Below, one piece after another: positions 11,989 to 53,206 of a stretch of DNA of 64,000 nucleotides. Each line of letters opens with the position of its first letter. Within the stretch, counting starts at the first letter, position 1. The translations under genes and the position numbers were made by a program. The DNA is from Candidatus Nomurabacteria bacterium (GTDB lineage Bacteria > Patescibacteriota > Minisyncoccia > Phycocordibacterales > SBAW01). Location of the stretch: the NCBI GenBank assembly GCA_943348815.1, contig CALQYT010000001.1, forward strand, positions 92,994 through 156,993, given 5' to 3'. The notes below the pieces were generated by a model. That model worked only from the letters and a program-made list of their open reading frames with translations, was not told the origin of the DNA and did no database searches.

Positions 11989-12729
11989 ATGGACCCAAAA
12001 GAGGTATTGGCCCGGGTGGGGGTGGCCGGCAAGGAGGGCGAGGTCTACCTCACGCTTATAGAGCTGGGGGAAGCAGCGCCCAAAGTAATAGCCCAAAAAG
12101 CGGGTATCAAGCGCCCCACCGCCTATGCAGTCCTCAGCGCGCTCGAGGCTAAAGGTCTTGCCCAAAAGGTGGTGCGCGATACCAAAGTGTTTTTTGCGCC
12201 GCATCATCCAGCCAAACTTTTGACCGACGCCGAGGTACGCCTGCGGGAGTTGAAGGAAACCATTCCGCAGCTGGAGTCGATGTTCCACAGCAAAGATCCG
12301 CGGCCGCGCGTCGTTATGTATCACGGCAAGCAAGCGCTCGACAAAGCCTATGACGAAATATTTTTGATGGAGGGTGAGGCGGTGGCGCTCAGCAACTCGT
12401 CTTTGGTACAAGAGTTGTTTGGTCGCACGTTGCAAAAACTTACGTACCGCACGTCGGCAAAGTTCCGCACGCGCGAGCTGCTCGACGACAGCGAAGCCGC
12501 GCGGCTGTATGCCGCGCGGCACGCTGGGCCCTATCGCCAAGCTCGCATCATGCCCAAGGAATTTATGCCGTTCGAAACCGACATCGCCGTGTGCGGCAAT
12601 ATCTCGCTCATCACCTCCGGCAAGAAGGAATTATTTACGGTTAAGATTGAGAGCCAAGAGATTGCGAACGCTTTCCACGCGATGTTCGAAGCGATGTGGC
12701 GGATCTCTGCGCCCGCGCTTAAGGAATAA
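11989..12729 (+). CDS. TrmB-like winged-helix transcriptional regulator
   Basis: GKEGEVYLTLIELGEAAPKVIAQKAGIKRPTAYAVLSALEAKGL wHTH; tail ...AMFEAMWRIS. Stop abuts the convergent SBP stop. Confidence 0.8.
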   Translation: MDPKEVLARVGVAGKEGEVYLTLIELGEAAPKVIAQKAGIKRPTAYAVLSALEAKGLAQKVVRDTKVFFAPHHPAKLLTDAEVRLRELKETIPQLESMFHSKDPRPRVVMYHGKQALDKAYDEIFLMEGEAVALSNSSLVQELFGRTLQKLTYRTSAKFRTRELLDDSEAARLYAARHAGPYRQARIMPKEFMPFETDIAVCGNISLITSGKKELFTVKIESQEIANAFHAMFEAMWRISAPALKE

Positions 12730-37290: not shown

Positions 37291-37728
37291 CTTTTCAGTT
37301 TAGAGGGGAAATACGATACTGTCAACAATTTTGACAACCTAAATCAGAATTATAAAAATAAGCCTCAAAATAAGGTTATTTAATAATTAAAATAAAACCA
37401 TACTTTTGACATAAGTGTAATCTTTACGCATACTCTACCTAGGCTCAAACCGAGGAACTGGCCATGAAAATCAACGTCCTTCTGCATCATGCGGACAATG
37501 GGAAGTTGCTTGAGCTAAAAGAAGAACGGATATGAAGTTGTTCCCTCAAGAGGCGGTTCTGCGCCGATCGATAGTAGTGACATGATGGATGCGCTTCGGA
37601 AGTGGCTGCACCAGAAAGGAGAAGAAAAAATACCTTTGCTCTTTATTTGAGCAAAGACGGGGGATCGGTGGGTCCCCCGCTCAGCTGAGAGCCTGATGTC
37701 TTCGGGCTCTCTTTGAGAAGTTTTATAT

Positions 37729-45560: not shown

Positions 45561-46181
45561 TTATTTTGCCTTAGGGGAGGGCTGCTCGGTCAAAACGTCA
45601 TCGATAATGCCGTATTTCTTGGCATCGTCCGCCATCATAAAGTAGTCGCGGTCGACGTCTTTTTCGATCTTGTCGAGCGGTTGGCCGGTGGCCTTGGCAA
45701 GGATCTTGTTGAGGCGCTCACGGGTGGCAATAATGTGCTTGGCCGTAATCTCGATGTCGGTGGCCTGACCCTGCGCGCCGCCCCACGGTTGGTGGATCAT
45801 CACCTCGGCATTCGGGAGTGCAAAACGTTTGCCCTTTTTGCCCGCGCCCAAAATAACGGCGGCTGCCGATGCGGCGATACCAATGCATACCGTTGCAACA
45901 TCGGGTTTAACAAAGTTCATCGTGTCGAGTATTGCCAAACCGGCCGTGACCGAACCGCCGGGGGAGTTGATGTAGAGCTGGATATCTTTTTTAGGGTCTT
46001 CGGACGCGAGGAAAAGGATTTGGGCAATCACCAAGTTGGCGGTGTGGTCCTCGATAGGCCCGGCCAAAAACACGATGCGCTCCTTGAGCAGACGCGAGTA
46101 AATGTCGAACGCGCGCTCACCGTAAGGCGACTTTTCGACGACCATCGGCACGAGTTGGCTGTATTCAGGTTTGTGTGACAT
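45561..46181 (-). CDS. clpP: ATP-dependent Clp protease proteolytic subunit
   Basis: [22 protein letters not shown] (Ser), MIHQP (His) motifs. Confidence 0.85.
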
Positions 46182-46190
46182 GCGTGTACT

Positions 46191-46577
46191 TTATGCTTTT
46201 TGCGAGTTCTTTTCAAGCCACGCGGCGATTTCTGTAAGACTCTTTTGTTTTTGAGCCACTGCAATAATAAGTTGTTCCGCGTCGACAATTTCAAATGTCG
46301 GTATATCAAAACCGTTTGCTCTGAGAAACACCTCTGCAACCATGGCCGAAGTTCGCTTATTGCCGTCTACAAATACGTGATAGGTCGCGATTGCCTCGAG
46401 ATACGCAGCTGCTTTAAGAAAGAGAGTAGGGAACTGAGCTTGTCCGCCAAAGGATGTTTTGGGCCGCTCTGCGATAGAACGAAGCAATCCTTCCTCGCGT
46501 AAGCCCAACGAACCTCCTATTTGTTCGATAAGGAGGTCATGGAGGGCTAGTATTTCTTCGGCGGACAAATATCGCAT
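46191..46577 (-). CDS. doc: Doc (death-on-curing) toxin, Fic family
   Basis: HVFVDGNKRTS matches the Doc/Fic motif H.F.(D/N)GNKR. Confidence 0.7.
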   Translation of the reverse strand: MRYLSAEEILALHDLLIEQIGGSLGLREEGLLRSIAERPKTSFGGQAQFPTLFLKAAAYLEAIATYHVFVDGNKRTSAMVAEVFLRANGFDIPTFEIVDAEQLIIAVAQKQKSLTEIAAWLEKNSQKA

Positions 46578-46814
46578 CTACTTGTCTTTGAGACGTTTAA
46601 GAAGTTCGCGATTTTTTGCAATGAACTCGCTGCCCCACTGTAAGATCTGAGGATCTACGTTTCCGGTATCTTTTTGCTCTGGTTTGACCGTAAAAGTCCG
46701 ATTGGAGGAGCTTGTCTCCACAAAGTCGCCGACAGCAACCCCTAATTCCTCAAGAGTTTCTTTAGACATGGTGACACCCACCGAACTCCCTATTTTAATA
46801 ACTTTTTGCTTCAT
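46578..46814 (-). CDS. AbrB/MazE (SpoVT-AbrB) fold antitoxin, cognate to Doc
   Basis: IKIGSSVGVTMSKETLEELGVAVGDFV swapped-hairpin motif; immediately upstream of doc with no spacer. Confidence 0.6.
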   Translation of the reverse strand: MKQKVIKIGSSVGVTMSKETLEELGVAVGDFVETSSSNRTFTVKPEQKDTGNVDPQILQWGSEFIAKNRELLKRLKDK

Positions 46815-46886
46815 GGCTCTAGTATATTATAATGTAATTATAATGCAAGACTTGACAAGTAATCTATAAGATGCTACGATCTCCGG

Positions 46887-47015
46887 TGGGAGCTGTGCGA
46901 AGATGCGGCGCGGATGCAGCGCAATCGTTAGCCGAAAGGCACGAGAGGTGCAGGTTTCAACCCTGTCGCTTTGTGCGGTTCCCACCCCAGACTTGCTGTC
47001 TGGGGTTACTGCTTT
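46887..47015 (+). ncRNA. candidate small RNA, antisense to the 3' end of tig
   Basis: Sigma70-like TTGACA (46852..46857)-17-TACGAT (46875..46880). Closing stem GGTGGGAGC/GTTCCCACC. Terminator CCCCAGAC-TTGCTG-GTCTGGGG plus a T-rich tail (46985..47021). Confidence 0.35.
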
Positions 47016-47911
47016 TCTCCCTCAAGCACTTTGAGCGCTTGTTCGTTTTTTAAAACAGTTTCGATATGGATTTTGAGTAAGTCCTTCCGTGCTTCGGGAA
47101 AGTGCTCGAGCGCATGCTTCATTTCGGCCTCTACCGCTGCAGGGTCGGCTACCAACTTTTCTTCTTCAGCAATTTTGTTTAACAGCAATTGTAGCGCCGC
47201 GCGTTTTTTGGCCTGATCGCGAAAGTCGTCGCGGATCTGCGCCTCGGTTTTTTGCACGTGTTTAAGATAGTCATCAAACTGCACGCCCATGCGCTGAATA
47301 TCATCGCGCATTTGGCCCATAATCTTTTCCAGCTCGCTTTCAATAAAAATGCGCGGCACCGTTAGTTGTGCGCGCTCAAGCAGCGCGTCAATAAGTTTGC
47401 CGCGGCGGATGTTGCGGGCCAGCATTTCGCGCGCCTTAGCCTGGTCTTCTTCGCTTGGCATCGGTTCGGCCTTGGGCAGCTCGCCGGTGTAGGGCTCGAC
47501 CGGTACCTTTTCGTGCAGCTCCTTCCAATTTTTTGGGAGTGGTACCTCCGGGTAAATAGTAGTTTGCACCAAGAGGCCGATCGGATTTTGCGGGGCTAAT
47601 TTAGTGACTTTAATTTCGGGCCGGCCAACCACACCAACCTTCTTTTCTCCCACCAAGACAGGGTAAAAGTCGCGGACAAACAGCTCGACCGCCTCTTCGA
47701 GTACGGCCAGGTCGCCAACTTTTTTGAGCGCCATGTCGGTGGGGACTTTGCCGGGGCGGAAGCCGGGCAGCTCCATATGCTCGGCAATGTGCAGGAGTGC
47801 GTGTGCGCGATAGGCCTCTACCGCTTCGTAGGGGACATCACCCGCGAGTTCTATTTCAGACTCGGGGAGGGTTTTGAGAGAAAATTTTTGCGCGATGTCT
47901 TGCAAAGACAT
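47006..47911 (-). CDS. tig: trigger factor, short form lacking a PPIase domain
   Basis: N-terminal ribosome-binding signature GFRPGKVP; helical C-terminal domain. 301 aa. Confidence 0.7.
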   Translation of the reverse strand: MSLQDIAQKFSLKTLPESEIELAGDVPYEAVEAYRAHALLHIAEHMELPGFRPGKVPTDMALKKVGDLAVLEEAVELFVRDFYPVLVGEKKVGVVGRPEIKVTKLAPQNPIGLLVQTTIYPEVPLPKNWKELHEKVPVEPYTGELPKAEPMPSEEDQAKAREMLARNIRRGKLIDALLERAQLTVPRIFIESELEKIMGQMRDDIQRMGVQFDDYLKHVQKTEAQIRDDFRDQAKKRAALQLLLNKIAEEEKLVADPAAVEAEMKHALEHFPEARKDLLKIHIETVLKNEQALKVLEGEKQ

Positions 47912-47920
47912 CAGGCAATC

Positions 47921-48232
47921 CTACAAGGAATTGTTGAGATTATCAACGTCGCCGCTGGCCGAGCCCTGCGCCGACGCGTTGAGGTCGCTCTGGATCGAAT
48001 CTTCAGGCGTATTTTGTGCGGCCGTATTGGTAGTGTCGGCGGGGACAGGAGTAGAAGTGCTTTGCTGTTGCGTGTACCAAAAGTACGCGCCACCCGCAAC
48101 AAGGAGCAGAACAACTATGCCGATACCAATAGCCGGACCCCAACCACCTTGTGCGGGAGCCGGAGCGGGGGTCATGGGTGCAGGATTAGCCTGTCCTGAG
48201 CTTGTCGAAGGGTTTTGTGTTTGTGGAGGCAT
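47921..48232 (-). CDS. small membrane-anchored low-complexity protein (hypothetical)
   Basis: Pro/Ala/Gln-rich N-terminus, one TM (IGIGIVVLLLVAGGAYFW), Thr/Ser-rich tail. Confidence 0.4.
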   Translation of the reverse strand: MPPQTQNPSTSSGQANPAPMTPAPAPAQGGWGPAIGIGIVVLLLVAGGAYFWYTQQQSTSTPVPADTTNTAAQNTPEDSIQSDLNASAQGSASGDVDNLNNSL

Positions 48233-52794: not shown

Positions 52795-53014
52795 TACTGT
52801 GTCAAACGAAATTGACATCGTATGAAAAGCCAAAACACACGAGAACCGCCGTAACGAAAGAGGAAATGCCGAGGTTTTAAGATGCAGAAGATTAACAGAA
52901 TAAAAATTTCAAAACAATGAACAAAATAAACGGGTCGCCGCCAGGAGGTAGAGCAGAGAGGGGAGAGAAGGTAGAGAAAGACAAAGTGCAGCCGACAGAC
53001 TCAGGTGTTACCTT

Positions 53015-53102
53015 GCTCCCCGCCCCAAGTGCATAGGACTACGAGCCCGCTCTCGGATTTAGATAGACAAAACCGATACAGAGCGAGCACTTGGGGCGGG
53101 GA
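53015..53102. repeat. long imperfect hairpin (16-bp perfect outer stem TCCCCGCCCCAAGTGC / GCACTTGGGGCGGGGA)
   Basis: Arms at 53017..53032 and 53087..53102 are perfect reverse complements. Confidence 0.6.
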
Positions 53103-53119
53103 ATAGATCACAGCTGAGC

Positions 53120-53151
53120 GGAACGAACCGGAACACGGTTCGTTTTTGCTT
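53120..53151 (+). terminator. intrinsic terminator
   Basis: AACGAACCG-GAACAC-CGGTTCGTT followed by TTTGCTT. Confidence 0.6.
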
Positions 53152-53190
53152 CCCCGACGCTTTGGTCGGGGTTCCGACTAAAACGTCGGG
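53152..53190. repeat. GC-rich double-hairpin miniature repeat (CCCCGAC-GCTTTG-GTCGGGG + CCGAC-TAAAAC-GTCGG)
   Basis: Reverse-complement copy of 25220..25258. Confidence 0.6.
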
Positions 53191-53206
53191 ATATAATAAG
53201 TGAGTA

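Follow-up and report, generated by a model that had tools for sequence, protein, structure and literature searches.

Between the genes for trigger factor (tig) and the protease ClpP (clpP) of an Adlerbacteria-like bacterium of the candidate phyla radiation (CPR), the plus strand carries a sigma-70-type promoter, a 102-nt hairpin and an intrinsic terminator. The locus is part of a stretch of 64,000 nucleotides, here called the window, and borders on a toxin-antitoxin (TA) pair, Doc and an AbrB-type antitoxin. Probably, we are dealing with a genuine non-coding transcription unit of about 130 nt, specific to this lineage, which was left over when a cargo gene decayed, i.e., one of the small-protein genes served by the same promoter in related bacteria. 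A sequence-only reading of the window had proposed a candidate small RNA (sRNA), bounded by promoter and terminator and antisense to the 3' end of tig. A non-coding plus-strand unit with these two boundaries is supported by the sequence signals. The term antisense was overstated; the overlap with tig amounts to about 10-15 nt of the terminator tail.

Promoter, hairpin and terminator

The promoter was recognized correctly from the start: TTGACA, a spacer of 17 nt and TACGAT (46852-46880) match the consensus at 10 of 12 positions, and the -10 element is TGn-extended. The consensus match alone is only modestly unusual, since the two strands of the window hold 17 sites with at least 10 of 12 matches compared to 10.0 ± 2.5 in shuffled sequences; TGn is present in only 2 of the 17. 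The plus-strand promoter finds much better support in the comparison of lineages than in its consensus score; scores of at least 10 of 12 arise about once per 7.5 kb of strand.

The DNA upstream of the antitoxin gene is conserved, and for this reason metagenome contigs were scanned with the pattern ATTATAATGCAAN{2,3}TTGACAA. Fifty-two stretches were returned. By the presence of an upstream TATTATAAY box 14 of them, plus an incomplete one, were counted as true cassette ends; the rest were taken for chance matches, some in unrelated coding sequence. The final alignment comprises 18 lineages, 11 found with the DNA pattern and 7 via the Doc or Tig protein. The second of two palindromic ATTATAAT boxes and the -35 are contained in the search pattern and are independent evidence only in the 7 latter lineages; the first box and the -10 are independent of it. 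The antitoxin start codon, TATTATAA, ATTATAATGCAA and TTGACA are identical in 18 of 18 lineages while the bases which flank TTGACA vary. Both ATTATAAT boxes, presumed to be the antitoxin operator, are identical in all 18 as well. A TAnnnT -10 is positioned 16-18 nt from the -35 in every lineage, with an invariant A and both T's conserved to at least 90%. The conserved TTGACA reads on the strand that points away from the TA genes. It overlaps the best minus-strand -35 candidate, TTGTCA, presumably the promoter element of the TA pair. In lineage L086 the next bases are altered and the opposite-strand hexamer is spoiled, TTGACA is retained. Judged by this alignment, the RNA promoter is a part of the conserved upstream control region of the antitoxin/Doc cassette. 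To describe the RNA as lying next to a Doc/AbrB module, as was done originally, is right with respect to adjacency, yet it understates the connection.

The hairpin has a calculated folding energy of -53.4 kcal/mol (z -5.05; frequency of the minimum free energy (MFE) structure 0.48). None of 200 dinucleotide shuffles is as stable, and among 7518 stretches of 102 nt scanned in the window it is one of the approximately six most stable ones. Nine of its 38 pairs are G·U. The long-range closing stem noted in the first reading is confirmed and exceeds its description. It has 18 uninterrupted pairs (46885-46902 with 46969-46986) of which 5 are G·U, and no A·C mismatch. Hairpin and terminator together reach -64.7 kcal/mol on the plus strand versus -52 on the minus strand, and generally the reverse strand folds 12-18 kcal/mol weaker. 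As a DNA inverted repeat the hairpin arms were not detected. The G·U pairs, the weaker reverse fold, the lack of a DNA inverted repeat and a U-tract on the plus strand only indicate that structure and terminator belong to a plus-strand RNA.

The terminator is ACCCCAGAC-TTGCT-GTCTGGGGT with nine pairs, six of them G-C, and the tail TACTGCTTTT. Several details of the first description need adjustment. The hairpin and the T-rich tail are present, but the loop is the 5-nt TTGCT instead of TTGCTG. The distance of about 130 nt from promoter to terminator hairpin holds when counted from the -35; from the -10 to the start of the hairpin it is 104 nt. The reported overlap with the last tig codons is true for the U-tail, which covers the stop codon and the last codons, but not for the stem, because the tig stop codon sits at 47006-47008. 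The U-tract follows the hairpin on the plus strand only. The minus strand continues as GGGAACCG, without a T-tract, and a terminator search of the locus found none on the minus strand after tig. A bidirectional tig terminator with no transcription start upstream, the objection raised at the outset, does not fit this picture.

Kinship with a cargo gene

In lineage L084 the first cargo open reading frame (ORF1) codes for 82 aa with two hydrophobic stretches. Window positions 46935-46982 match L084 ORF1 with a local score of 19, compared to a maximum of 18 among 200 shuffled queries (mean 13.5, sd 1.4) and of 16 in 469 kb of unrelated CPR DNA. A second, colinear match covers the 5' arm of the hairpin. 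In a global alignment window 46875-46914 and 46951-46990 are placed on L084 codons ~48-75. The indels are insertions of 6 and 36 nt and a compensating +1/-1 pair, i.e., all are multiples of three or cancel each other. The 36-nt insertion forms the apex of the hairpin and starts with an 11-nt tandem duplication. L084 also possesses the most window-like promoter spacer (TTGACAAGTA...). Because both hairpin arms align with the 3' part of the L084 cargo gene, the window RNA is, by its alignment, a deletion relic, its sequence stemming from the corresponding part of a cargo gene for a small protein. In the simplest history an L084-like gene would have lost ~240 nt by a deletion from the -10 to codon 48, and everything beyond the hairpin region as well.

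The L084 segment itself folds modestly (z -2.13). It keeps 11 of 14 comparable basal pairs, including one exchange of G-C to C-G in which both bases are changed. In the window 18 of 18 pairs are formed; thus, the stem was strengthened in the window lineage. Relatives of L084 ORF1 were sought by word-index and full HMMER protein searches; both returned only the query itself.

The 60-aa frame on the plus strand (46871-47053), initially considered to be the only ORF and spurious, is indeed most dubious: its ATG is located inside the -10, it reads past the terminator and a Pfam search gave no match. It is not the only one. A second plus-strand ORF of 43 aa (46903-47034) has GGGAG 10 nt upstream of its ATG at 46903; it also reads past the terminator and is equally without a Pfam match. 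On the minus strand a 52-aa ORF (46827-46985) starts with GTG in the terminator stem and spans promoter and operator; it is not hydrophobic.

The cassette between tig and clpP

The features of the locus are compiled in the table. In the window tig and clpP are separated by 824 bases which contain the RNA unit, the antitoxin and Doc genes. In five relatives without insert (L004, L012, L015, L018, L020) clpP follows within a few tens of bases after tig. Doc is above both curated cutoffs (PF02661, 67 bits, cutoff 24; TIGR01550, 58.2 bits, cutoff 38.65). The antitoxin matches TIGR02609 doc_partner in full length with E 3e-11, at 43.5 bits below the curated cutoff of 55.9.

Features of the tig-clpP locus (window coordinates)
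Feature	Position	Strand	Remarks
clpP	45561..46181	-	9 nt downstream of doc
Doc toxin gene (Fic-fold), 128 aa	46191..46577	-	PF02661 and TIGR01550
AbrB-type antitoxin gene (TIGR02609 doc_partner), 78 aa	46578..46814	-	divergent from RNA
Two palindromic ATTATAAT boxes with centres 11 bp apart	46826..46844	.	between abrB start codon and RNA promoter
-35 hexamer TTGACA	46852..46857	+	divergent 'cargo' promoter; overlaps TTGTCA on - strand
Extended -10 TGcTACGAT	46872..46880	+	TACGAT at 46875-46880, TG at 46872-46873
102-nt hairpin RNA	46885..46986	+	18-bp basal stem, internal loops, GAAA-capped apex 46934-46937
11-nt tandem duplication GATGCrGCGCG, 1.9 copies	46902..46922	+	within 5' arm
36-nt apical segment including GAAA hairpin	46915..46950	+	without counterpart in L084 coding sequence; global alignment
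Intrinsic terminator	46984..47021	+	9-bp stem 46984-47006, 5-nt loop, U-rich tail
tig (trigger factor, 301 aa)	47006..47911	-	convergent with RNA; without own - strand terminator

The Tig relatives of the window are from Candidatus Adlerbacteria, Kaiserbacteria and other Paceibacteria, at best 62% identical among species representatives. In a larger protein collection the closest Tig relatives are 65-70% identical; they have neither the TA cassette nor the window RNA. In the window trigger factor only Trigger_N and Trigger_C were matched and no FKBP/PPIase domain is listed; relatives have 284-380 aa.

The order tig - spacer - antitoxin - doc - clpP is kept in more than 15 lineages, and Doc homologues of 60-88% identity are frequent in this clade (Paceibacteria: Adlerbacteria, Kaiserbacteria). 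Doc of the window is 88% identical to Doc of a Kaiserbacteria genome (L003/L024) in which Tig is only ~56% identical, and the Doc cassette was also found in an unrelated context (L029/L030). This discrepancy of identities, together with the copy in an unrelated context, suggests that the cassette is either horizontally mobile or under unusually strong constraint.

The cargo of the outward promoter varies profoundly. In about 12 lineages it consists of one to three small hydrophobic, membrane or secreted, proteins of 43-155 aa which have Shine-Dalgarno sites; ORFan small membrane proteins are the usual cargo. Four lineages (the window, L025, L026/27 and L046) have a non-coding cargo of 60-210 nt with a terminator at the tig stop; those of L025, L026 and L046 resemble the window RNA, or any cargo gene, neither in architecture nor in sequence. 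In L031 both the promoter and the cargo are missing. In L049/L056 a convergent ORF of 334 aa, perhaps inserted into the slot, ends ~50 nt downstream of the cargo promoter. The nearest Tig relatives, L090 and L092, lack the TA pair, yet between tig and clpP they possess an antisense cassette with a 69-aa membrane protein and the recurrent promoter and leader motif described below.

A number of related spacers deserve mention in their own right. In L025 (2020-2120, minus strand) the same cargo promoter drives a structured RNA of ~60 nt with a GAGA-capped hairpin and a strong terminator, together -46.0 kcal/mol (z -4.6, mononucleotide shuffles) versus -38.5 (z -3.7) on the other strand, with no match in Rfam. 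The tig-clpP spacers of L037, L059, L084, L086, L087, L089, L090 and L092 contain a recurrent cassette which runs antisense to tig and clpP and comprises the promoter-like motif CTTGACnnnCnAAACTTTCAAGCGTACCGTnnTGnnACAGGGTA, the conserved leader GTTCTTCGTTCAcGCCGTTcTGCATTCCGCaAACGGC... and the gene of an ORFan small membrane protein. Its 3' end is formed by a hairpin GCAGAGCAyC...GrTGCTCAAAGGG and a terminator at the tig stop, and it is found even where the TA pair is missing. A promoter motif of tig-clpP spacers is CTTGAC...CAAGCGTACCGT...ACAGGGTA. In two Adlerbacteria long-hairpin RNAs of 115-130 nt are located immediately downstream of tig and run opposite to it (L014:4960-5075 and L019:5310-5440, minus strand), with -70 and -89 kcal/mol compared to -52 and -59 on the other strand and no Rfam match. 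We examined them as homologues of the window RNA and rejected them: they constitute a separate family which shares an unpaired bulge AAAUCUCUCUCCUC, absent from the window. In L017 (5190-5330, plus strand) tig is followed on the same strand by a promoter-like site, TTGATT-17-TATAGT, a three-way-junction RNA of ~55 nt and a terminator, another candidate for an orphan sRNA at the 3' side of tig.

Elsewhere in the window three structured stretches were noted. The gene-free region 52900-53206, upstream of an ORF of 481 aa, contains a perfect inverted repeat of 16 bp (53017-53032 / 53087-53102) with 54 nt between its arms; a 102-nt stretch of this region folds with -53.5 kcal/mol on the minus strand and has no Rfam match. 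The most stable 102-nt folds of the window are those of 12423-12563 (-58.4 kcal/mol, minus strand, 69% G+C). At 37620-37720 three short, consecutive G+C-rich hairpins are positioned between a gene-free stretch and the next plus-strand ORF; they look like stacked terminators, which would explain the very low folding energy at only 49% G+C.

Alternative readings and biological meaning

The covariance-model scan against Rfam suggested in the sequence-only reading has been carried out. For 46000-48000 it gave nothing at the locus at E <= 10, and for the whole window only four tRNAs at gathering thresholds, none of them here; ARAGORN had no hit at this place either. Against 22 related genome loci nhmmer and blastn returned only chance 12-mers inside nusA, i.e., the RNA is absent at this locus in 22 related genomes. 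BLAST against phages and plasmids yielded nothing meaningful. Scans of viral contigs with two patterns gave a single 19-mer in L093; its flanks are unrelated, and it was dismissed as chance. A single-sequence covariance model, run over 365 kb of related loci, hit only a generic perfect hairpin in L013. Look-ups with the window's own antitoxin led to a second contig which is identical, with no variants. So the interval and its stems, for which conservation among relatives had been an anticipated test, have no homologue in related loci, phages, plasmids, viral contigs or Rfam. As a conserved structured RNA family the unit fails: a homologous RNA with covarying pairs was not found, and the sole relative is the L084 coding segment. 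A crude, restricted scan for complementarity to the 5' regions of abrB, doc, clpP, tig and rny gave nothing above shuffles. A literature search on Patescibacteria, toxin-antitoxin and small RNA retrieved nothing relevant.

Known classes of elements were examined individually and rejected. The small bacterial signal recognition particle (SRP) RNA, RF00169, is not matched at E <= 10 within 46000-48000, nor anywhere in the window at the gathering threshold. Compared with the domain IV motif of E. coli 4.5S RNA, the GAAA loop is present but below its 3-bp stem follows a regular 4-bp helix with a 2-nt bulge. For 6S RNA, tRNA, tmRNA and Y RNA no family model (Rfam or ARAGORN) matches. A type I antitoxin RNA was dismissed as the only opposite ORF, that of 52 aa, encodes no hydrophobic protein and extends from the terminator stem across the promoter, and a type III ToxI-like RNA as there is only the 11-nt duplication at 1.9 copies and the RNA is on the strand opposite to doc. 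An integron attC-like site would need R'/R'' core sites, absent from the stem base. A miniature inverted-repeat transposable element or DNA palindrome does not apply as the arms are not a Watson-Crick inverted repeat, and a tRNA-like CCA end has no ARAGORN match and faces a stem of 18 bp.

A comparison with known systems is instructive. In enteric bacteria, pseudogene-derived sRNAs have been described, i.e., orphan intergenic sRNAs which arose from decayed genes. The window unit resembles them in three respects: a short, structured, putatively non-coding transcript is framed by a sigma-70 promoter and an intrinsic terminator, its sequence is traceable to a former protein gene, and it is restricted to one lineage. 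It differs in its promoter, which did not arise anew but belongs to a TA cassette as its conserved cargo promoter. With Phd/Doc type II loci the cassette shares the position of Doc (Fic-fold) after a small antitoxin and palindromic repeats immediately upstream of the antitoxin start. In contrast, the window antitoxin is AbrB-type (TIGR02609), not Phd, and the cassette has a conserved outward promoter which drives a highly variable cargo. We know of no outward cargo promoter in P1 phd-doc. Cis-antisense and type I antitoxin RNAs such as Sok and RatA are likewise small and structured, with promoter and terminator of their own and convergent with a neighbouring gene, and the window RNA is potentially complementary to read-through transcripts. 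Yet a small hydrophobic toxin ORF on the opposite strand is missing, the overlap with tig involves only the terminator tail, and complementarity would target an intercistronic read-through segment instead of a ribosome-binding site. The likeness to 4.5S SRP RNA lies in the length of ~100 nt and in the shape, one long hairpin which is paired at its ends and capped by a GNRA tetraloop above a 3-bp stem. Unlike 4.5S RNA, the window RNA does not have the symmetric and asymmetric loops of domain IV, finds no covariance model at E <= 10 and is not conserved, its apex being a recent insertion.

The decay of a cargo gene may have proceeded as follows. In a clade of Paceibacteria (Adlerbacteria, Kaiserbacteria) the AbrB-type antitoxin/Doc cassette occupies the space between tig and clpP. 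Its upstream region combines two ATTATAAT palindromes with a back-to-back sigma-70-type promoter which fires away from the TA genes. Normally this promoter would express one to three ORFan small membrane proteins, and transcription would end at a terminator abutting the tig stop. Here, deletions would have removed the 5' untranslated region, about the first 47 codons of the cargo gene and everything after the retained piece. The remnant would be a piece of old coding sequence, already prone to fold, which acquired the 36-nt apical insertion and an 18-bp mismatch-free basal stem. From signals and comparison, RNA polymerase is predicted to start at ~46886-46888, to transcribe the hairpin and to stop at the intrinsic terminator. 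Selection presumably keeps the promoter as a part of the TA control region, with a -35 that overlaps the presumed TA -35 on the opposite strand, and keeps the terminator, which would stop antisense transcription into tig. A conserved partner in trans is not to be expected; any action would be in cis. A stable antisense RNA, or convergent transcription as such, might counteract tig read-through into abrB-doc-clpP; tig is without its own terminator here.

Several points weigh against this reading. Transcription is predicted from signals and promoter conservation. The RNA is carried by one genome, and as the second contig is identical there is no covariation by which to weigh selection. The relic argument rests on one relative, L084; since its ORF1, itself an ORFan, had no relatives in either protein search, the coding homology is that of a single pair. 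The stem is better than its coding homologue in pairing (18/18 vs 11/14) as well as in stability (z -5 vs -2), unlike what neutral decay would produce, and the improvement hints at selection for structure, i.e., a function of the RNA itself. A cis-antisense or insulator role and control by the operator are deductions, and significant complementarity to the neighbouring 5' regions was not seen in the crude scan.

The improved stem, together with the 9 G·U pairs and a basal stem free of A·C mismatches, lends some credit to a newly born, functional sRNA, i.e., a remnant recruited after decay and acting in trans as a regulatory or protein-binding RNA, e.g., as substrate or decoy of RNase III or of a double-strand-binding protein or by way of its GAAA-capped apex. 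Retention of a strong extended -10 promoter although no protein is made, and the three other lineages with non-coding cargo and terminators, point in the same direction. We consider this possible, though the lesser prospect: no homologue was found and hence no covariation evidence, the RNA is nearly all double-stranded with no obvious seed region, complementarity to the 5' regions of abrB, doc, clpP, tig and rny is no better than in shuffles, and the other non-coding cargos differ in sequence and architecture. Less probable still, and raised here tentatively, is a wider proposal: the Paceibacteria AbrB-type/Doc cassette would carry a dedicated, antitoxin-controlled outward promoter as an expression slot for fast-replaced payloads, mostly ORFan small membrane proteins and in a few lineages structured RNAs, and the window RNA would be a payload recruited from the remains of a protein payload, with a hairpin under selection. 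That the RNA is a third component of the TA system, divergent from a shared operator and modulating Doc, the antitoxin or their mRNA, is unlikely. The common conserved control region with overlapping -35 elements on opposite strands, and a slot always filled by something transcribed from the cargo promoter, would agree with it. However, most lineages have unrelated ORFan membrane proteins in the slot, and L031 has nothing, not even the promoter; so the TA pair does not need the RNA. Further, ToxI-type tandem repeats are absent, and complementarity to the 5' regions of abrB or doc does not exceed that of shuffles.

Might there be no RNA gene at all, only a hairpin (46984-47006) which terminates tig, or both directions, and a chance promoter? 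The frequency of promoter matches at the level of at least 10 of 12 makes that signal weak when taken alone. Nevertheless we regard this as quite unlikely, as the U-tract is confined to the plus strand while the tig strand continues as GGGAACCG, -35 and -10 are kept at fixed spacing in 18 lineages with the -10 outside of the search pattern, and in relatives the same promoter precedes genes with Shine-Dalgarno sites. The chance that the unit still encodes a small protein, from the 43-aa or 60-aa ORF or the 52-aa ORF opposite, is smaller yet. Relatives do hold small proteins in this slot, and GGGAG precedes the ATG at 46903 by 10 nt. But both plus-strand ORFs cross the terminator hairpin and U-tail (stops 47034 and 47053), the longer one has its start within the -10, and the frame homologous to L084 ORF1 lacks a start codon and is interrupted by TAG at 46929-46931; to this come the lack of Pfam matches and the GTG start of the minus-strand ORF in the terminator stem, from where it crosses promoter and operator. 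Hardly credible, finally, is a housekeeping RNA missed by the models, such as a divergent SRP (4.5S) RNA, 6S RNA or a tRNA-like/Y RNA. The superficially 4.5S-like shape, a hairpin of ~100 nt whose 5' and 3' ends are paired and whose GNRA (GAAA) apex tops a 3-bp stem, and a cloverleaf-like alternative fold 3.9 kcal/mol above the MFE may invite the idea. It is countered by the silence of Rfam at E <= 10 and of ARAGORN at this position, an apex made of a regular helix and a 2-nt bulge instead of SRP domain IV loops, the origin of this apex as a lineage-specific 36-nt insertion between arms homologous to protein-coding sequence, and the absence at the locus in 22 related genomes.

By itself the sRNA matters little. 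It is a single-genome orphan which fits no family and probably arose as a by-product when a gene decayed. As such it is a clean example, at the level of sequence, of how a non-coding unit with promoter and terminator may arise from a protein gene by deletion, and it advises caution: a conserved RNA gene does not follow from strong signals of promoter, terminator and fold. More interesting is what surrounds it. The tig-clpP spacer is, in many lineages of the CPR, a hotspot of antisense-oriented cassettes for ORFan small membrane proteins, and to this hotspot, a fast-changing slot, the Doc cassette supplies a conserved outward promoter. If the antitoxin controls the outward promoter, expression of the payload would be tied to TA activation, right beside the protease gene clpP. 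Should the payload slot prove true, these reduced genomes would possess a TA-linked, fast-changing effector locus, antisense within the tig-clpP operon.

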